Both the position numbers and the translations under genes were made by a program. The notes under the pieces are model-generated. The model made no database searches. It saw only the letters and a program-made list of their open reading frames with translations, and was not told where the DNA came from. A stretch of DNA of 64,000 nucleotides from an uncultured Candidatus Saccharibacteria bacterium (lineage in GTDB: Bacteria; Patescibacteriota; Dojkabacteria; GCA-002793355): assembly GCA_964525295.1 (NCBI GenBank), contig CAZGEO010000001.1, positions 150,360 through 214,359 on the forward strand, written 5' to 3'. How positions within the stretch are numbered: position 1 is the stretch's first letter; each line of letters starts with the position of its first letter. Shown one piece after another: positions 6,245 through 53,399 of this stretch.

Positions 6245-7785
6245 TACACCAATTCCTCAAGTAATCTGGCCATTTCAGTCGCATCTAGGGCATAACGCAA
6301 AGCGTCTTCTTGCTGAATTAACCCTTCTTTGTATAGCCCAAGTAATGATCGTTCAAGTGTAATCATGCCGAGATCTAGACTCGTTCTGATGATATTATCG
6401 ATTTGATAAATCTTGTTTTCTCGAATTAAATTCCTAATTGCTGGAGTCATTAACATGATTTCTAAGGCAGCACGTCTACCACCGCCTTTTACAGGAATTA
6501 ATCGTTGCGCAACAACGGCTTCTAGAACATCTGCCAATTCAGAACGAATCTCATCTTGCTGAACATCTGGGTACATATTTACAATTCTTTGTATTGTCTG
6601 AGCAGCGCTATTTGTGTGTAAAGTTGCAAATACCAAGTGACCAGTTTCAGCGACAGTAATCGCCGAAGAAATTGTTTCAAGATCACGCATTTCTCCGACC
6701 AAAACTACATCTGGATCTTCACGAAGTGCAGAACGAAGTGCACCTTTCCAGGAGTGAGTGTCATCACCGAGTTCTCGCTGTGAAACAAGTGCCTTTTGTT
6801 GAGGAAAGACATATTCTACTGGATCTTCAATAGTCAGAATATGTTTTGGATGTTTCATGTTAATTTCTTGAATTACTGCAGCCAAAGAAGTTGACTTACC
6901 ATGGCCTGTTGGACCAGTAACAAGAACCAATCCTTGTTCAAGATCAGTAAATTTATGAAACAAATCTGGAAGTTTCAATTCATCAATTGTTCTAATTCTC
7001 GTAGGAATTAAACGGAAAGCTGCAGACAAATAACCACGCTGCCAGTATGCATTAATACGAAATCGACCAGCATCTTTATGTTGATATGCTAAATCTACCT
7101 CGCGATTTACTTCAAGTTGCTCCTTTTTGTCATCTGGCAAAACTGAATAAATCAATTCTTTTGCTATTTGTGGCGTAATAATTACTGAACCAACAGTAAC
7201 TAAAGATCCATCGATACGAACCATTGGCAAATAGCCAACGACTAAATGGAGATCAGAGGCATCTTGCGCAATAACCAAATCTAATAATTGCTTAATTTCA
7301 TATGGACCACTTACCGAAATATTTCCTACAGCTGGTTCTTGTGGCTGCGCTGGCGAAATTGGCGTAGCAACAACAGGCGAACCTAAATCTGGCTGTGGGG
7401 CCACGGGTTGCGTAACCTCAGGAAAGGTAACTGCTGGCGTTACTACCGCAGGTGTTGACGATACAGGAACATCACTCGAAGAAACTGGAGGCTGAGTTAC
7501 TGTAGGTTGACTTGCAACAGCATTCTCTGTAACCGTCTCGGTTACCTGTGTTGATTGCACAACATTTACTGGTTGTTCTGATACAGTCGGAATCGGCGCT
7601 GCTGGTGATTGCCCAGTCATTTGTTTAAGCATTGCAAGTGGATCTAAAAAACCTGGTTTTGCGACATCTTGTGCTGACGCATTCATAGGCGTAGATGAAA
7701 CCGGTGGCAAACCAGAACTTGTTTGCGGTAACGGAGGTAATTGAGTGTTTGGCGGTTGTATCGGAGTTCCTGTGTTTAAATCCAT
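6244..7785 (-). CDS. pilT: PilT-type twitching-motility/retraction ATPase with an N-terminal low-complexity extension of about 170 aa.
   Basis: Core matches PilT: ASDLHL, Walker A GPTGHGKST, DPVEY, an Asp box, and HLVFATLHTNSAAQTIQRIV. The N-terminal ~170 aa are rich in Pro/Thr/Ser/Val/Gln with no in-frame stop. Confidence 0.85.
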   Translation of the reverse strand: MDLNTGTPIQPPNTQLPPLPQTSSGLPPVSSTPMNASAQDVAKPGFLDPLAMLKQMTGQSPAAPIPTVSEQPVNVVQSTQVTETVTENAVASQPTVTQPPVSSSDVPVSSTPAVVTPAVTFPEVTQPVAPQPDLGSPVVATPISPAQPQEPAVGNISVSGPYEIKQLLDLVIAQDASDLHLVVGYLPMVRIDGSLVTVGSVIITPQIAKELIYSVLPDDKKEQLEVNREVDLAYQHKDAGRFRINAYWQRGYLSAAFRLIPTRIRTIDELKLPDLFHKFTDLEQGLVLVTGPTGHGKSTSLAAVIQEINMKHPKHILTIEDPVEYVFPQQKALVSQRELGDDTHSWKGALRSALREDPDVVLVGEMRDLETISSAITVAETGHLVFATLHTNSAAQTIQRIVNMYPDVQQDEIRSELADVLEAVVAQRLIPVKGGGRRAALEIMLMTPAIRNLIRENKIYQIDNIIRTSLDLGMITLERSLLGLYKEGLIQQEDALRYALDATEMARLLEELV

Positions 7786-31239: not shown

Positions 31240-31268
31240 TTGCGAAAAGTTTCCCCATCGTCTATAAT
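31240..31268 (+). promoter_or_regulatory. Sigma70-like promoter for the tRNA gene.
   Basis: -35 TTGCGA at 31240-31245. 17-nt spacer. -10 TATAAT at 31263-31268. tRNA 5' end 10 nt downstream. Confidence 0.5.
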
Positions 31269-31278
31269 ACTGAACAAT

Positions 31279-31350
31279 CCAGAGGTAGCTCAGTGGTAGA
31301 GCCGGAGACTGTAAATCTCTTGGTCGGGGGTTCAAATCCCTCCCTCTGGA
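31279..31350 (+). tRNA. tRNA-Tyr (anticodon GUA), 72 nt, class I with a short 5-nt variable loop. C1:G72, A73, no encoded CCA.
   Basis: Manual fold. Acceptor CCAGAGG/CCTCTGG. U8. D-stem GCTC/GAGC with GG in the loop. Anticodon stem GGAGA/TCTCT. Loop CU-GUA-AA with U33 and A37. T-arm GGGGG-TTCAAAT-CCCTC. A T-run follows. Confidence 0.8.
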
Positions 31351-31363
31351 TTTTTTTATTACC

Positions 31364-36293: not shown

Positions 36294-36545
36294 ATGAACA
36301 AAATCAAGAATGTTTTACAGAAGATGGGTGTCACATACTTTTCGGCACGAGAAAATTTCAAAAAGCGATATCCTCTCATAAATACCATTTTAATATTGTT
36401 CGCAATGGTTATGCTTTGGCGCGGAATCTGGGGGGTACTAGATCTCTACCTATTTCCTGAGAATCAACTACTCAGCTATGTTGCCAGCATTGGTATTGCA
36501 CTCTTCATCATTCTTTTCGATGATTTCAAACTAACAGAAGTCTAA
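36294..36545 (+). CDS. Small hypothetical membrane protein of 83 aa.
   Basis: Two hydrophobic helices. Short ORF. Confidence 0.3.
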   Translation: MNKIKNVLQKMGVTYFSARENFKKRYPLINTILILFAMVMLWRGIWGVLDLYLFPENQLLSYVASIGIALFIILFDDFKLTEV

Positions 36546-36593: not shown

Positions 36594-36896
36594 ATGAACA
36601 CTAATTGGCGAACCAATGAATTAACCCAGCTTGCTGAAGCAATTGCTGTTTGTTCGACAATAGATGAAGTAGAGTCTTTTCTACGTGATTTACTCACCGA
36701 AGCAGAAATTAAAGAATTTGCAGGTAGATTAGCGGTTGCTAAAGCGTTGGCATCAGGAATCAGCCAAAGAACGGCTTCAAAGCAAACCGGTGTAAGTATC
36801 GCAACGGTCACCAGAGTCAATAAGTGGTTAACCAATGGCGCATCCGGGTACAAAAACGTTATCAACAAGATTTTCCATCATCATCATAAGGCGTAG
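36594..36896 (+). CDS. TrpR-like YerC/YecD-family DNA-binding protein ending in a His4 run (..FHHHHKA).
   Basis: RDLLTEAEIKEFAGRLAVAKAL...SQRTASKQTGVSIATVTRVNKWL matches the YerC/YecD Trp-repressor-like fold. Codons CAT x4 at 36876-36887. Confidence 0.65.
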   Translation: MNTNWRTNELTQLAEAIAVCSTIDEVESFLRDLLTEAEIKEFAGRLAVAKALASGISQRTASKQTGVSIATVTRVNKWLTNGASGYKNVINKIFHHHHKA

Positions 36897-36987
36897 TTTT
36901 TCGCTTTGTGATTTCATATTTTCCAAAAAAATAAAGGTAAGTAAGAAGAGACAAGGCGAAAAGCCTGATTTTTTTATAAATAAATTA

Positions 36988-36993
36988 TATAAT
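36988..36993 (+). promoter_or_regulatory. -10 element (TATAAT) about 10 nt upstream of the hisS ATG, so a leaderless or very short leader.
   Basis: TTATATAATACACGAATT-ATG. No Shine-Dalgarno between the box and the start. Confidence 0.4.
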
Positions 36994-37002
36994 ACACGAA
37001 TT

Positions 37003-38322
37003 ATGAATCAAAACTTCCTTTCAACGCAGCCTTATAAAGGTGCTCGAGATTTCTATCCAGAAGATATGCGTTTACGTAATTACATATTTAATACCTGGAA
37101 AAAAGTCTGTACCCGCTATGGATTCGAAGAATATGATTTCCCGATTCTTGAAAATTTCGAAGTTTTCGCCTCAAAATCTGGGGAAGAAATTGTGAATACG
37201 CAACTTTTCTCATTTGAAGATAGAGGTGGCAGAAAAGTTGCGATTCGCCCAGAACTTACGCCAAGTACCGTTCGCATGATTGCAGCTCGCATCAATGATT
37301 TACCAAAACCAATCAAATGGTTCATGATTGGTAACAACTGGCGTTTTGAAAAACCTCAAAAAGGGCGTGGCCGCGAATTTTATCAACTGGAGATGAACAT
37401 TTTTGGTGTTCCTGAAGTTGAAGCAGATTTTGAAATCTTTTCAGCAATTGTAGATATCATGTCGGCCTTTGGCGCGAATGAAACGATGTACAAAGTAAAG
37501 TACAGCGATCGCAGAATTATTTCGGCATTATTGCGTGATTACCTAAAGCTCGACGATGAAAAACAGGTTGCCGCCCGCAGAATTATGGATAAGCGCCAAA
37601 AAGTTTCGAAAGAAGATTTTGTCACAATGCTTGCAGAAGTTAACATTTCAGCAGGTGATGCAGAAAAAATCGATGCCTTTATGCTCAGTTCCTTTGCTGA
37701 TTTAAAGGGTGTCATTCCAGCAGAAATTCTTGAAAATAATGAGGGCTACAAGAATGTATTTGCTTTAGAAAAACTCTTGCAAACCTACGATATTCAAAAA
37801 TATTGCGAATTTGATCCGGGTATTATCAGAGGTTTCGATTATAGCGATGGATTAGTGTACGAAGTATTTGATAAGAATCCAGAAAACAGGCGTTCAATGT
37901 TCGGAGGAGAACGTTTTGACAGATTGATCAATGTTTATGGTAAATATGACATGGCTGCAACTGGCTTCGCCATGGGGGATATTACTTTGCAAGAATTCCT
38001 CAAAGGTTGGAATCTATTACCTGAATTTCCTAGTACAACCACGGTTCTTGTTACTCGTTTCGGTCAAGATGAAAAGTTTGAAGCATACAGCATAAAGACC
38101 GCCAAGAAACTGAGAGATGCTGGTATTACCGTTGACTTATACACCACACCTGATAAGCTCGAAAAACAATTGAAATATGCTGACAAGAAGGGAATACCTT
38201 ACGTCATCATTGCGGGTGAAGAAGAAATTACGAAAAGTACTGTCGTATTGAAGAATATGCGCAAAAAGGATCAAACAATAGTTCAACTTACTGACTTATG
38301 TGATGTAGTAAATGGCACCTAA
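37003..38322 (+). CDS. hisS: Histidyl-tRNA synthetase, class IIa.
   Basis: Motif 1/2 region FRFEKPQKGRGREFYQ matches RYERPQKGRYRQFHQ. Motif 3 region. C-terminal anticodon-binding domain (VLVTRFGQDE...YVIIAGEEE). Start taken at ATG 37003; the track ORF from 36835 is an upstream extension. Confidence 0.9.
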   Translation: MNQNFLSTQPYKGARDFYPEDMRLRNYIFNTWKKVCTRYGFEEYDFPILENFEVFASKSGEEIVNTQLFSFEDRGGRKVAIRPELTPSTVRMIAARINDLPKPIKWFMIGNNWRFEKPQKGRGREFYQLEMNIFGVPEVEADFEIFSAIVDIMSAFGANETMYKVKYSDRRIISALLRDYLKLDDEKQVAARRIMDKRQKVSKEDFVTMLAEVNISAGDAEKIDAFMLSSFADLKGVIPAEILENNEGYKNVFALEKLLQTYDIQKYCEFDPGIIRGFDYSDGLVYEVFDKNPENRRSMFGGERFDRLINVYGKYDMAATGFAMGDITLQEFLKGWNLLPEFPSTTTVLVTRFGQDEKFEAYSIKTAKKLRDAGITVDLYTTPDKLEKQLKYADKKGIPYVIIAGEEEITKSTVVLKNMRKKDQTIVQLTDLCDVVNGT

Positions 38323-46327: not shown

Positions 46328-46783
46328 TTGCAGATGGCGAAACTGGGGGATGTCTTTGAAATAGAGATCGACAAGCAAAAAGCATATTTTCAATACACTT
46401 TTAAATATGTCCCATTCGGTTACTTAATTCGAATATTACCAGGCCTATATACCGACAAATGCGATAACATTCAAGAACTAGTCGAACAAAAACAGCGTTT
46501 TTGGATATTTTACCCACTCGGAACAGCTATACGACGCAAGCTTATAACCAAAGTTGGAAATTTTGCCATCCCAACATACGCACAAGAATTGCCACCAATG
46601 CGTGCCAGAGGAGGCATTGCAAAAGACGGTACGGTATTAAATTGGTACCGATGTGAAGGCACCAATGTTCAAAGAATCAATCTAACAGAAAAAGATCTCG
46701 ATTTGTCGCTTAGGGGTGTAGCTAATCATCAATACCTAATCGACATCATTAAGGACCCAGACTACCCAAGAAGCATTCGCTAA
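46328..46783 (+). CDS. Hypothetical protein.
   Basis: 151-aa ORF. No motif recognised. Confidence 0.4.
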   Translation: MQMAKLGDVFEIEIDKQKAYFQYTFKYVPFGYLIRILPGLYTDKCDNIQELVEQKQRFWIFYPLGTAIRRKLITKVGNFAIPTYAQELPPMRARGGIAKDGTVLNWYRCEGTNVQRINLTEKDLDLSLRGVANHQYLIDIIKDPDYPRSIR

Positions 46784-47721
46784 TTACAATATTTTTTTCC
46801 CCACGTAATTTGCCTTTTCGCATAACGACGGTGCTCACGTTGAATTTCAGACAGTACGGCATCGAATTGTGGCATGCGATCATCTACAAGTTGCTGCCAA
46901 TTATGATTCTCTGTCATAAATTTCACCAACTGCCTGTATCCCATCATCTGCAGCGCAGGTGCAGCAGCGCCATATTTGGCAAGTAACGAGACTACTTCAT
47001 CAAGCCAGCCCAGCTCGATATAAGTCAAAACCCGTTCATTTATGATTTGATATGCTTGCTCACGCTCGATCGTCGGCAAATGCCAAATCTTTTTCATCTC
47101 TTGCAACACTAAAGGAACTTCAGCTTTTTCAGGCGCAATCTTTTGCATTGCATTCTCGATTAATCGAATTAATCGTCGTGGATTACCTCTATCACTTTCA
47201 TTCAACGAAGCGAATTTTTCTTTAGCACTCTGTTTCGCTTTTTCCTGTAATTCAGCAAGAGATAAAGCATTCAGTTCGCTTCGCAAGAATTCATCTTTCT
47301 CTGCTAAAAGTCCGTGTCCTTCAAGTATTGAATCCAAATACAAACCTGTTCCGCCGTGAATAATGAGCCCCCCTCGCTCTCGCAAGAGCGCCTCATTTTT
47401 ATTCAACCAGTCATACACATACTGCTGATATATATATGCCGAAATCTCTTCGGTAGGTTCTAAAAAATCAATTCCGGCAACGGTCATTGAAGGATTAGAT
47501 TTTATAAAATTCACCATTGTATATTTATTAGTACCAATATCGGCAAACTTATAAACCTTACGTGAATCAACCGAAAGAATCGGGTAACCGTATTGTTGCC
47601 ACAGCGAAAAAGCAAGCTTACTCTTACTAGAAGCAGTTGGACCAAAGATTATGTGCAAATTCACAATGTATTGTAGCAAAAAAACAAAGAGTATCCTATA
47701 ATACGACCGTGCGCACATCAA
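46780..47721 (-). CDS. miaA: tRNA dimethylallyltransferase MiaA. True start probably near 47661 (TTG before LHIIFGPTASSKS).
   Basis: IIFGPTASSKSKLAFSL...ILSVDSRKVYKFADIGTNK matches iiGPTASGKS...IISaDSmQvYrgmdIGTAK. Confidence 0.85.
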   Translation of the reverse strand: MMCARSYYRILFVFLLQYIVNLHIIFGPTASSKSKLAFSLWQQYGYPILSVDSRKVYKFADIGTNKYTMVNFIKSNPSMTVAGIDFLEPTEEISAYIYQQYVYDWLNKNEALLRERGGLIIHGGTGLYLDSILEGHGLLAEKDEFLRSELNALSLAELQEKAKQSAKEKFASLNESDRGNPRRLIRLIENAMQKIAPEKAEVPLVLQEMKKIWHLPTIEREQAYQIINERVLTYIELGWLDEVVSLLAKYGAAAPALQMMGYRQLVKFMTENHNWQQLVDDRMPQFDAVLSEIQREHRRYAKRQITWGKKYCN

Positions 47722-50480: not shown

Positions 50481-53399
50481 ATGACATTTCAGGAAATCAT
50501 TCAAACTCTAAATACCTTTTGGGGCAAGCAAGGCTGTTTAGTCGGGCAACCTTACGGCGTAGAAGTTGGAGCCGGTACAGGTAACCCAAACACATTTTTT
50601 AGGGTTTTAGGTCCTGAACCATTTAATGTCGCTTATGTTGAACCAAGTCGACGTCCTACCGATGGTCGTTATGGGCAAAGCCCGAATAGATTTCAACATT
50701 ATTACCAATATCAGGTCATATTGAAACCAGCCCCGAAATTCAACCAAGAACTTTTTATTGAAAGTCTCATTGCAATTGGGCTTGATCCAGAAAAACATGA
50801 TATTCGTTTCGTTGAAGACAACTGGGAATCAACGCCGCTTGGGGCTTGGGGGCTAGGATGGGAAATTTGGTGCGATGGTATGGAAGTTGCACAATATACT
50901 TATTTTCAGCAAATGGCGGGTATCCCGCTCGAGGTTCCAGCGCTAGAAATTACCTACGGTCTTGAGCGATTGGCAATGTATATTCAAAACGTTGACCACT
51001 ACAAAGACCTAAAATGGAACGAAACTACTACCTATGCGGATCTTTTCGAAAGACATGAATATTGGCAGGCAACACATAACTTCGAAACTTCAACACCAGA
51101 ATCTTTACAAACACTTTTTACAACTTACGAAAAAGAAGTTCAAACTCAATTAGAAAGAAAAAATTACTGGGGCGCATACGATTATTTATTGAAAGTATCG
51201 CACGCTTTCAACTTACTCGATGCACGTGGTATGGTAAGTGTTTCTGATAGAGTTGCAAAATTCGGCATGATGGGAAAATACTCAAAAGCAGTAGGGCAAA
51301 TGTATTTAGAAGAACGAGAATCACTTGGATTTCCACTTAAAAACCGCATGTCACCAATTAATTTTCAATTACCACTTGTTAATTCTCAATTAGAGAAGAA
51401 CGATAAGTATCAAAAAAACGTTGCTATTGTTGAACTCGGATTTGAAGAAATTCCCTCTGAATACTTAAGTGAGTGGAGTAGTATTGCAACACACAGCTGG
51501 CTTAAACAGCAGCTCAAGGCGAATGGTATTACCTATAGAAAGGCATATATTTACTTTACTCCCCGTAGAATTGTTATAAAAATCGTGCAACCTAGTAAAG
51601 TCGGTCAGGTAACACAAATTATCAAGGGACCTATGGCGAGTATTGCCTTTGATTCAAATGGAAACAAAACGCCAGTACTTGATGGATTCTTGCAAAAAAA
51701 TGGGGGGACACGTAAAGACACAAAAGTTGTTCTAATCAAAGATACAAAAACTAACAAAGAAATCAGCATCGTTCAACTACACAAAGAATTGAAAGTTTCC
51801 CTTGGCGAGGCGTTGCAAAAAATTGCTCAGCAAATTCTTGATCTTGCGCCAAAAACGAAGTGGATGGTATGGGAACAAAACGTTCCTGCCTTCATTAGAC
51901 CTCTCAGAACAATAGTAGCCTTTCACAATGACAAAAAGTTGTCAATTTCACTCATGAACTGCAAGAGCAATACTTTGACCTCCCTGCCTCGTTACGAACG
52001 ACCTGGATGCATTTCTTTGAAGTCAGCTCAAGAATATCTTGCGTTCCTACAAAGCTACGGAATTATTCTTAGCCCAAAGAAACGAGCTGCTCGCATAACT
52101 CGCGAATCTAGCGAAAAGAATACGCAGAAAATCGGCAAGTTTACAGCAATGATAGAGAAGAACACCTTCTTAACCGAAAATCCACATGGTAAACAGCTTG
52201 CACTTGAAAAGAGGTACACAGAATTACCAAAAGAACTCGTGACACTTATCCTTGAGAAGAATCAAATGTATCCAATGACTTCAAATGACAAAGGTGAGAT
52301 CTTCTACCATATCGTCGCCAATCATTATCGAGTTCACAAGAAAATCGAACATGGAAACCAGAAAGTTGCAAAAGCACGTCTTGATGATGGCTTATTCTAT
52401 TTCCAACTCGATATTCAAAAGAAACTTGAAGATTTTGAGATTGGTCTAAAACAGGTTGGATTTCATCCTAAAGCTGGTACCTACTTCGATAAAAAGAAAA
52501 GGATTTCAGATTTAGCAGAAAAATTCTACAAGCAAATGAATAAAGCTATGCCCGAAACAGTACAAGAGGCACTTCGATTGATCAAAAATGATAAGGCTAC
52601 GGCACTCGGAAAAGAGTTTCCATCGCTTGAAGGAACAATTGGCAAGGCTTATGCACTGCGCCAAGGGATAAATAAAGAAGTTGCGGATATGCTTGCAGAT
52701 CATTACTTACCACTAACGCCTGAAGGAGAATTACCAAAAACGGAAGGTGCAATCATATTAAGTATTGCTGACAAAATCGATTCATTAACGACGTTAGCTC
52801 AAGTTGAAAAACTACCAGAAGGTAGTCACGATCCATTCGAAATTCGCAAAACAGTTTACAGATTACTTGCCTTGTTATTAAAAGGGAATGTTTCAATTGG
52901 TGAGTTGCCATTCAGCGACGCCCTTTACGCCTTTATTAACAAGCGATTTCAACAAATTCTTGAAGATGAAGGTATTCCGCACTGGATTGCTAACGGCGTA
53001 AGCAAGAGTAAAGAAAAGGATTTTGCGAGAAAGTATGAGTACGCAAAACGATTGCAACAATTGACGGCTGAAAAAAATGATACGGCTGAGCAGGTTTTAG
53101 ACACGATGAAAAGAGTAAACAATATAACCCAGAAAGAACCTGAATTACGCATCTCACTTGATGAAGTAAAGCCTGCGAACCTAACGATACAAGCTGAAAA
53201 AGATTTATTCAATCTACATCAAAGAAACAGTGAAGGATTCGCACCAGAAGCAATATTCGAACTTGGGGCAACCTTAAACAACTACTTCACTGACGTCTTA
53301 GTCATGGATAAAGATCCCGAAGTTAAAAGACTTCGAATTGGTCAATTGAAACTTATTCAAGAGACACTAGAGAAGAACTTCATGCTCGATTTCACTTAG
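50481..53399 (+). CDS. glyQS: Glycyl-tRNA synthetase, bacterial alpha2beta2 type, with alpha and beta fused into one 972-aa chain.
   Basis: N-terminal ~290 aa match GlyQ (TFQEIIQTLNTFWGKQGC...QYQVILKP...WGLGWEIWCDGMEV...ITYGLERLAMY). The remainder matches the GlyS beta subunit. Confidence 0.9.
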   Translation: MTFQEIIQTLNTFWGKQGCLVGQPYGVEVGAGTGNPNTFFRVLGPEPFNVAYVEPSRRPTDGRYGQSPNRFQHYYQYQVILKPAPKFNQELFIESLIAIGLDPEKHDIRFVEDNWESTPLGAWGLGWEIWCDGMEVAQYTYFQQMAGIPLEVPALEITYGLERLAMYIQNVDHYKDLKWNETTTYADLFERHEYWQATHNFETSTPESLQTLFTTYEKEVQTQLERKNYWGAYDYLLKVSHAFNLLDARGMVSVSDRVAKFGMMGKYSKAVGQMYLEERESLGFPLKNRMSPINFQLPLVNSQLEKNDKYQKNVAIVELGFEEIPSEYLSEWSSIATHSWLKQQLKANGITYRKAYIYFTPRRIVIKIVQPSKVGQVTQIIKGPMASIAFDSNGNKTPVLDGFLQKNGGTRKDTKVVLIKDTKTNKEISIVQLHKELKVSLGEALQKIAQQILDLAPKTKWMVWEQNVPAFIRPLRTIVAFHNDKKLSISLMNCKSNTLTSLPRYERPGCISLKSAQEYLAFLQSYGIILSPKKRAARITRESSEKNTQKIGKFTAMIEKNTFLTENPHGKQLALEKRYTELPKELVTLILEKNQMYPMTSNDKGEIFYHIVANHYRVHKKIEHGNQKVAKARLDDGLFYFQLDIQKKLEDFEIGLKQVGFHPKAGTYFDKKKRISDLAEKFYKQMNKAMPETVQEALRLIKNDKATALGKEFPSLEGTIGKAYALRQGINKEVADMLADHYLPLTPEGELPKTEGAIILSIADKIDSLTTLAQVEKLPEGSHDPFEIRKTVYRLLALLLKGNVSIGELPFSDALYAFINKRFQQILEDEGIPHWIANGVSKSKEKDFARKYEYAKRLQQLTAEKNDTAEQVLDTMKRVNNITQKEPELRISLDEVKPANLTIQAEKDLFNLHQRNSEGFAPEAIFELGATLNNYFTDVLVMDKDPEVKRLRIGQLKLIQETLEKNFMLDFT

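Follow-up and report, generated by a model that had tools for sequence, protein, structure and literature searches.

The question raised by the locus described here is whether a bacterium may read its tyrosine codons by means of a tRNA that follows the identity rule of archaea and eukaryotes. The recognition of tRNATyr is a textbook example of domain-specific tRNA recognition, in which a G1:C72 first acceptor pair accompanied by a long variable arm (V-arm) is opposed to a C1:G72 pair without V-arm. The DNA analyzed, a stretch of 64 kb (positions 150,360 to 214,359 of contig CAZGEO010000001.1) denoted here as the window, contains a gene for a class I tRNA-Tyr(GUA) of 72 nt (window positions 31279..31350, + strand). 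An initial annotation, made from the sequence alone, had pointed out that this tRNA carries the C1:G72 pair and lacks the V-arm, and had proposed that, if the genome were bacterial, this would imply an unusual recognition system between the tRNA and its tyrosyl-tRNA synthetase (TyrRS). The evidence gathered here indicates that the gene very probably encodes a functional tRNA-Tyr, and that its host, a Dojkabacteria-like bacterium, follows the archaeal/eukaryal tyrosine identity rule and not the bacterial one.

Identity and Structure of the tRNA

The first piece of evidence concerns the tRNA itself. ARAGORN, the use of which had been suggested as a check, returned a single tRNA for the whole window, a tRNA-Tyr with anticodon GTA at 31278-31351, and the segment 31279-31350 matched the full Rfam model RF00005 with 71.1 bits (E=1.6e-13; gathering score 29) and zero non-canonical pairs. 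The stems of the cloverleaf comprise 7, 4, 5 and 5 bp, and the conserved U8, A14, G18-G19, U33 and GUUCRAAUC T-loop are present. The minimum free energy fold was likewise a cloverleaf. Its z-score of -1.15 is usual for single tRNAs and provides no argument against the call, the evidence for which is the covariance-model score and the covariation described below, rather than the fold z-score. The ARAGORN call was 2 nt longer than that of Rfam, with one flanking U added on each side, and pairing of the one at the 5' end with A73 is conceivable. This extension was considered an edge artefact, because the upstream flanking base at two homologous loci (L005 and L014) is an A, unable to pair with A73.

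Inspection of the sequence, together with the Rfam alignment, provided the elements relevant to tyrosine identity. The acceptor stem (CCAGAGG/CCUCUGG) yields a C1:G72 first pair, and the discriminator base is A73. The D arm reads GCUC-AGUGGUA-GAGC, the T arm GGGGG-UUCAAAU-CCCUC, and the anticodon loop CUGUAAA, containing G34, U35 and A36 followed by A37 and A38. The variable loop (UGGUC) comprises 5 nt and, therefore, the tRNA belongs to class I and has no V-arm. Since A73 is directly followed by TTTTTTT, CCA is not encoded. Hence, what the initial annotation had read from the letters, namely a sole tRNA with the Tyr anticodon GUA, a class I architecture, a C1:G72 pair and the lack of an encoded CCA, was recovered in full. 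The molecule carries the complete archaeal/eukaryal-type tRNATyr identity set (C1:G72, A73, G34-U35-A36 and class I architecture), whereas it has neither the long variable region (5 nt here) nor the G1:C72 pair of a bacterial class II tRNATyr.

An anticodon does not by itself establish the amino acid carried, and it was considered whether the tRNA might decode UAY without carrying tyrosine, being charged instead with a different amino acid, or be a remodelled Phe-, Asn- or Ile-like tRNA, leading to recoding or mistranslation. The body does look like that of a generic class I tRNA, its nearest annotated relatives being tRNA-Asn and tRNA-Ile from phages and E. coli (the closest E. coli tRNAs, Asn and Ile, are ~78-81% identical), and several G1:C72 GUA tRNAs from scattered genomes look tRNA-Phe-like by eye. 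However, this similarity is generic (the conserved core being ~78-85% identical), the archaeal/eukaryal tyrosine set is complete with respect to C1:G72, A73 and GUA, and the tRNA lacks both U36 and G73, required by AsnRS, and A35, required by PheRS. As a cognate-type TyrRS could also be attributed to the same genome (see below), mischarging appears highly improbable.

The possibility that the tRNA derives from a phage or another mobile element was considered as well and rejected: the phage matches reflect generic core similarity (79-89%) to tRNA-Asn, tRNA-Arg and tRNA-Ile, and such an origin is also opposed by the housekeeping neighbourhood and the flat guanine-cytosine (GC) content described below.

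Conservation of the tRNA in Related Genomes

A collection holding a single genome for each bacterial and archaeal species was scanned with a degenerate pattern for this type of tRNA, which detects V-arm-less forms only. The pattern yielded 16 matches, three of them in Candidatus Dojkabacteria, including a closed genome of 1.09 Mb (L008). The L008 tRNA has an acceptor stem identical to that of the window tRNA, whereas its anticodon stem (GGAGU/ACUCU versus GGAGA/UCUCU) and its T stem (CAUAG/CUAUC versus GGGGG/CCCUC) differ by compensatory changes. The other two, L005 and L014, share the acceptor stem CCGGCGG/CCGCCGG, and these, as well as the tRNAs of loci L013 and L009, which carry further stem variants, are all class I with C1:G72 and A73. 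When the six related tRNAs were aligned, 100% of the cloverleaf cells were paired and 11 of the 21 pairs were changed on both sides. None of 500 shuffles reached the observed values, and slid controls were 37-57% paired. The C1:G72 and C2:G71 pairs, A73 and the anticodon loop were invariant across the six molecules. Judged by this comparison of sequences, selection has maintained the tRNA, which is not a decaying pseudogene.

This finding bears directly on the notion that the gene might be an extra or decaying class I copy in a genome where decoding is accomplished by a class II G1:C72 tRNA-Tyr and a bacterial TyrRS encoded elsewhere. The window covers 64 kb of a genome estimated at ~1 Mb, and in some scattered bacteria a class I GUA tRNA does coexist with a class II tRNA-Tyr of the normal kind (locus L004 is an example). 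In contrast, a score of 71 bits without mispairs, compensatory changes and invariant identity elements across Dojkabacteria, and the recurrence of a -10-like box at a similar upstream distance are not what would be anticipated for such a copy. The nature of the enzyme, discussed below, speaks in the same direction.

Class I GUA tRNAs were also observed outside Dojkabacteria. In L003 (a Parcubacteria MAG, Candidatus Nomurabacteria, 6987-7060, - strand), the tRNA shows an apparent C1-A72 mismatch or, alternatively, shifted ARAGORN boundaries. Loci L004 (4670-4958), L007, L010, L012 and L018 contain class I GUA tRNAs with G1:C72 and A73 in scattered metagenome-assembled genomes (MAGs) that lie outside the candidate phyla radiation (CPR), Lachnospiraceae, Alistipes and Myxococcota among them. 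The bodies of several of these look tRNA-Phe-like by eye, as if GAA had changed to GUA, and may represent real anticodon shifts or assembly errors. In L004, the class I GUA tRNA lies two genes from a normal 83-nt class II tRNA-Tyr. Finally, dense arrays of 12-24 tRNA genes per ~1.7-3.5 kb, each including a class I GUA tRNA (in L006, with an odd, GU-containing anticodon loop), were found at L006 (1469-4981), L015 (3630-5318) and L017 (4564-7896), in MAGs of Bryobacterales, Blastochloridaceae and Planctomycetota. Arrays of this kind are typical of phages or mobile elements.

Host and Genomic Neighbourhood

The bacterial nature of the genome, which the initial annotation had assumed on the basis of the other genes, was borne out by the housekeeping neighbours of the tRNA and by synteny with MAGs named Dojkabacteria (WS6, a CPR lineage). 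The tRNA is found among gyrB, eno, hisS, serS, glyQS, type IV pilus genes and a LytR_cpsA_psr gene. Specifically, on one side lie gyrB and genes for a methyltransferase, a CYTH-domain protein, a mannose-1-phosphate guanylyltransferase, enolase and a HAD hydrolase. The other side contains genes for a sulfotransferase, a polysaccharide ABC exporter and a GT4 glycosyltransferase, followed by hisS, LytR_cpsA_psr, serS, miaA and a fused glyQS, and further left in the window are the type IV pilus genes and that of a LeuRS-sized class I synthetase. Window proteins are 40-64% identical in amino acid sequence to those encoded in the flanks of the Dojkabacteria loci L005, L008 and L014, with which gene order is also shared: pilus genes, holB, TP_methylase and gyrB, then the tRNA, which in L005 is directly downstream of gyrB. 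In L008, hisS and ppa are close to the tRNA. By these sequence comparisons, the host is a Dojkabacteria-like CPR bacterium, an assignment that reflects similarity to three named Dojkabacteria MAGs and not phylogenomic placement.

The same evidence allows one to consider whether the tRNA could be archaeal DNA, for instance from a DPANN archaeon, introduced by contamination or chimerism of the assembly or bin. C1:G72 and the class I architecture are archaeal-like, CPR bacteria and DPANN archaea co-occur, and cross-contamination of bins can take place (PMC5370408). However, the window DNA is present on a 163.5-kb Logan contig (SRR11582162) and also in SRR11582163, the same arrangement being found on at least two Logan contigs, of 163.5 kb and 28.7 kb, that were assembled independently. 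The window proteins are also encoded on a 659,080-bp contig at NCBI. The GC content (mean 38.8%) is flat, ranging from 0.36-0.43 across the window, and shows no compositional break at the tRNA. Moreover, the same tRNA occurs near gyrB or hisS in other Dojkabacteria, the closed 1.09-Mb genome included, and A37/A38 and the upstream sigma-70-like promoter are bacterial traits. Taken together, contamination is hardly conceivable.

Nature of the Partner TyrRS

If the tRNA follows the archaeal/eukaryal rule, an enzyme of the corresponding type should be encoded in the same genome. No TyrRS was found in the window, either by a motif scan of its 56 open reading frames (ORFs) or by tblastn with the Methanocaldococcus jannaschii, human and E. 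coli enzymes as probes. The only synthetase recovered by the motif scan was the 788-aa LeuRS-sized class I protein mentioned above, with tRNA-synt_1 and Anticodon_1 domains. A clue was derived from two of the related loci, L013 and L009, where tblastn revealed a full-length archaeal-type TyrRS directly adjoining the class I C1:G72 tRNA. These two enzymes scored 379 and 385 bits, respectively, on the archaeal-type equivalog NF006330 (cutoff 220 bits), and both fell under the cutoff of the bacterial tyrS model TIGR00234 (113.8 bits).

Both loci have features of their own. In L013 (JAACPI010000001.1, 1714-3028, + strand), from a Crystal Geyser MAG with 34% GC, the TyrRS has 360 aa and the tRNA(GUA), with an encoded CCA, lies ~160 nt downstream, in an operon-like arrangement unlike that of the Dojkabacteria loci, where the tRNA is near gyrB or hisS. 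In L009 (JBOHNC010000116.1, 54-1356, - strand), a 3.1-kb contig with 63% GC, a tRNA(GUA) with encoded CCA is directly upstream of the TyrRS. As this contig was binned as Planctomycetota, it represents either an archaeal Tyr cassette beyond CPR or a misbinned contig. One further archaeal-type TyrRS match (P0120) is named Weeksellaceae.

Successive searches of the TyrRS family, for which the queries were first the L013 enzyme, next a relative fused to a B2 domain, and finally the enzyme of WS6 GW2011_GWA2_37_6 (P0128), delineated a large group in which proteins from CPR bacteria (WWE3, Roizmanbacteria, Patescibacteria) are mixed with those of DPANN archaea, the cytoplasmic TyrRSs of plants and oomycetes being among the more distant matches. 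At least 10 members carry the NCBI name Dojkabacteria or WS6 tyrosine--tRNA ligase. The TyrRSs of Dojkabacteria include B2-fused, ~375-aa, ~450-aa and ~610-aa forms. Among the family proteins, P0270 (444 aa) displayed the same database signature as the window proteins (NCBI plus Logan, two contigs, the longest of 659,080 bp), and is probably the TyrRS of the window's organism. Two other candidates for this role, P0187 and P0224, which were Logan-only matches with three contigs, were rejected, both being from other samples.

The characterization of P0270 answered the question about its type, which the initial annotation had recommended to inspect. The protein scored 323.8 bits on NF006330 and 81.6 bits on TIGR00234, thus above the archaeal-type cutoff and under the bacterial one, and its significant sequence matches in PDB were all eukaryotic, archaeal or giant-virus TyrRSs. 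Its AlphaFold model (pLDDT 90.1, pTM 0.86) had as neighbours the TyrRSs of plants, Plasmodium, Pyrococcus, Aeropyrum, Nanoarchaeum and M. jannaschii, with target-normalised TM-scores of ~0.85-0.92, and no bacterial-type TyrRS was present among its top 50 structural neighbours. P0270 ends right after the anticodon-binding domain and has no C-terminal S4-like domain. At the other end, it starts at the TyrRS core, with PF00579 as its only listed domain, and the N-terminal B2/tRNA_bind (PF01588) fusion present in P0128 is missing. It is 55% identical to P0128 over the TyrRS core and aligns at 63% identity with P0273, a protein NCBI-named Candidatus Dojkabacteria. A ~75-aa all-beta insertion is found just before the KMSKS motif.

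In the TyrRS alignment, Arg132, Lys175, Asp286, Tyr32 and Asp158 (M. jannaschii numbering), as well as KMSKS, are invariant. Asp286, Tyr32 and Asp158 have functional roles in the M. jannaschii enzyme. The numbering used is consistent with the residues given in the paper on the solved complexes, where C1 is contacted by Arg174 and, via water, by Arg132, and G72 by Lys175 (PMC1934993). P0270 keeps the published contacts to G72 (Lys175) and G34. Judged by the curated hidden Markov model, the PDB sequence matches and the predicted fold, P0270 is a TyrRS of the archaeal/eukaryal type, and the proposal that the tRNA implies a non-bacterial recognition system gained support from its partner.

These data also complete the case regarding the gene as an extra copy. 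The enzyme traced to the genome is of the archaeal/eukaryal type, for which cross-reaction with a G1:C72 tRNATyr does not occur (PMC1934993). Likewise, all Dojkabacteria-named relatives of the WS6 enzyme were archaeal-type, in a search that was unable to return bacterial-type enzymes. A redundant class I copy serving beside a bacterial pair is thus very unlikely.

Several points weigh against the use of the archaeal/eukaryal rule by this bacterium and must be set beside the evidence in its favor. The tRNA body carries no specific ancestry signal, and A37 in a tRNATyr is bacterial/eukaryal-like rather than archaeal-like, archaeal tRNATyr having G37. The search for tRNA-Tyr and TyrRS covered the 64-kb window and the fetched flanks, of a genome whose size (~1 Mb) is estimated from related CPR bacteria. 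The assignment of P0270 to the window genome is indirect, being based on the shared database signature, although such coincidence is very unlikely by chance. Lastly, the residue of P0270 that corresponds to M. jannaschii Arg174, the C1 contact, is a Gln, located in a DQQK motif. Since Arg174 is equivalent to yeast Arg193, which contacts C1 and A73 (PMC1934993), recognition of the acceptor end by P0270 may differ in detail from that in the solved complexes.

Expression, Processing and Charging

The initial annotation had described the promoter of the gene as a textbook one. A -35-like hexamer (TTGCGA, 31240..31245, + strand) and a -10 hexamer (TATAAT, 31263..31268, + strand), the latter ending 10 nt before position 1 of the tRNA, were indeed identified by consensus scan and, with a 17-nt spacer, provide 10 of 12 consensus matches over 31240-31268. 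However, the scan found two sites in total versus 2.4 expected in shuffles, and the putative promoter is not significant alone. Because shuffled sequence yields as many sites, it was used here only by virtue of its positional recurrence in relatives, where the homologous tRNA is likewise preceded by a -10-like box with comparable spacing (TTTACA-17-TAAAAT in L008, TATAAT in L014). The run of seven T residues directly after the discriminator base (31351..31357, + strand) likely marks the transcript end or a 3' trailer that is cleaved off prior to the addition of CCA. In L005 and L014, too, the tRNA is succeeded by a T-rich trailer, and a terminator scan found no canonical terminator on the tRNA strand. 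A gene for a MiaA-type tRNA isopentenyltransferase (46780..47721, - strand; PF01715 IPPT, 122.7 bits) is encoded 15 kb from the tRNA. MiaA is expected to modify A37 in UNN-reading tRNAs with A36-A37-A38, a context that the anticodon loop of this tRNA fits.

These elements can be integrated in a tentative scheme. Briefly, the tRNA would be transcribed from its own sigma-70-like promoter and trimmed by RNase P to C1, and, as CCA is not encoded, this sequence would be added post-transcriptionally. By analogy with known MiaA substrates, A37 would probably be isopentenylated by the window-encoded MiaA. P0270 would then charge the tRNA with tyrosine, the elements recognized by enzymes of its type being C1:G72, A73 and G34. 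Such enzymes do not need a long variable arm, because they are devoid of the S4-like domain used by bacterial TyrRS to hold it. Once charged, the tRNA would read UAU and UAC as tyrosine, that is, according to standard decoding. As for its origin, the TyrRS family probably entered CPR bacteria by lateral transfer, with the tRNA either co-adapted or co-acquired, and the adjacency of enzyme and tRNA in L013 and L009 is as expected of a transferable cassette. The sources proposed for this transfer are DPANN archaea or eukaryote-like donors (Mukai et al. 2017, PMC5370408).

Comparison with Known Systems

The tyrosine system described here is a phenomenon that was published for this phylum in 2017; the inference drawn from the window was right, but it is not new. 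Mukai, Reynolds, Crnkovic and Soll (Life 7:8; PMC5370408) reported that C1-G72 tRNATyr is accompanied by a TyrRS of the archaea/eukarya type in Parcubacteria, Microgenomates, Dojkabacteria (WS6) and Katanobacteria, and considered that the CPR TyrRSs were probably acquired from DPANN archaea. These authors also described that the TyrRS of WS6 GW2011_GWA2_37_6 carries an N-terminal PheRS-beta B2 domain. Beyond this work, the literature searched contained no other paper on tyrosyl tRNA in Dojkabacteria, and the two passages found in a 2023 review of tRNA identity (PMC9976931) were unrelated to the CPR system. The window's system matches that of Mukai and coworkers in its host (CPR, Dojkabacteria/WS6), its C1-G72 tRNATyr and an archaea/eukarya-type TyrRS without the S4-like domain. 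In contrast, the V-arm-less form, to which the window tRNA belongs, was named there explicitly only for a Roizmanbacteria genome, and P0270, unlike the WS6 enzyme, lacks the B2 fusion and contains both the ~75-aa beta insertion and Gln in place of Arg174. The text of Mukai et al. makes no mention of these last two features, which characterize the TyrRS subgroup of P0270 and are possibly new.

The same report suggests a variant of the explanation preferred here, in which the window gene would be one of two tRNA-Tyr genes, the other encoding a V-arm-containing C1-G72 form. The V-arm is retained in many C1-G72 tRNATyr of CPR bacteria, both forms coexist in one Roizmanbacteria genome (PMC5370408), and the pattern employed on the genome collection was sensitive to V-arm-less forms only. 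However, neither a second tRNA nor a bacterial-type TyrRS/tRNATyr pair was present in the 64 kb of the window or in those flanks that were retrieved, and small CPR genomes usually contain one gene per tRNA species. The existence of two genes is, therefore, unlikely, and a single V-arm-less tRNA-Tyr that follows the archaeal/eukaryal rule is still favored.

With the M. jannaschii pair (1J1U), the system has in common a class I tRNA with C1:G72, A73 and GUA, an enzyme without a C-terminal tRNA-binding domain, and the conservation in P0270 of Arg132, Lys175, Asp286, Tyr32 and Asp158. Foldseek matched the P0270 model to M. jannaschii TyrRS folds with E ~1e-20 to 1e-21, target-normalised TM-scores of 0.85-0.89 and 27-29% identity, and a MAFFT alignment of the bacterial-hosted TyrRSs, P0270 included, with the M. 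jannaschii sequence gave 36-43% identity. Unlike the M. jannaschii pair, P0270 has a Gln for Arg174 and an insertion domain, the host is bacterial, and the promoter is sigma-70-like. The A37 of the window tRNA also provides a MiaA-type context that is foreign to the G37 of the archaeal molecule.

The closest solved relatives of P0270 are eukaryotic cytoplasmic TyrRSs from Phaseolus vulgaris (7SC6/8ZMI) and Plasmodium (3VGJ/7ROR), with phmmer E-values of ~1e-97 to 1e-94, 36-40% identity and target-normalised TM-scores of 0.87-0.92. Eukaryotic TyrRSs use the same C1:G72 identity rule (PMC1934993). In contrast to P0270, the plant and Plasmodium enzymes lack the insertion, and the acceptor-contacting Arg, documented in the yeast enzyme (Arg193), is a Gln in P0270. 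Finally, the window tRNA shares with canonical bacterial tRNATyr (E. coli, T. thermophilus) the GUA anticodon, A73, the A36-A37-A38 loop and a bacterial promoter context. However, the canonical molecule is class II, with a long arm and G1:C72, and is served by a TyrRS with an S4-like domain, whereas the window tRNA has neither the arm nor G1:C72 and P0270 remains under the TIGR00234 cutoff.

Implications

Bacteria that naturally run on the archaeal rule show that an identity set is not fixed within a domain of life, as lateral transfer can replace it. This point was made in 2017, and the present locus adds one well-supported example, with an intact and conserved V-arm-less tRNA and a probable partner enzyme. 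The two tyrosine identity rules also underlie the orthogonal pair that genetic-code expansion employs most widely, the TyrRS-tRNATyr pair of M. jannaschii being the standard one. The practical value of the system described here is modest: it would supply a clean natural pair from a bacterial host, in which a promoter of bacterial type is combined with an anticodon loop suited to MiaA, and the TyrRS variant, owing to its beta insertion and the Arg174-to-Gln change, represents a modest lead on altered acceptor recognition or orthogonality.

A bolder and rather doubtful idea is that a Dojkabacteria TyrRS subgroup, having lost the C1-contacting Arg and gained a conserved all-beta domain of ~75-85 aa before KMSKS, has developed a new mode of recognition of the acceptor end or the tRNA body, co-evolved with the V-arm-less C1:G72 tRNATyr. 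If so, this would be a third solution beside the bacterial S4 domain and the B2 fusion of WS6, and pairs of the P0270 type might be orthogonal to both bacterial and standard archaeal pairs.

Other Features of the Window

Some additional observations concern the neighbouring genes. The HisRS ORF (495 aa, 36594-38322, + strand) matched the hisS model only from residue 65, and its N-terminal extension of ~64 aa overlaps a 100-aa ORF with a match to Trp_repressor (PF01371), a situation that may correspond either to a matter of start assignment or to a fusion. In CPR bacteria, trp-repressor genes adjoin unusual TrpRS operons (Mukai et al. 2017, PMC5370408). GlyRS (50481-53399, + strand) is one alpha-beta fusion protein of 972 aa (PF02091 and PF02092) and not the product of separate glyQ and glyS genes. 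Lastly, an 83-aa ORF (36294-36545, + strand) matched PF15993 (Fuseless), a eukaryotic family, in what is probably a spurious or low-complexity hit.

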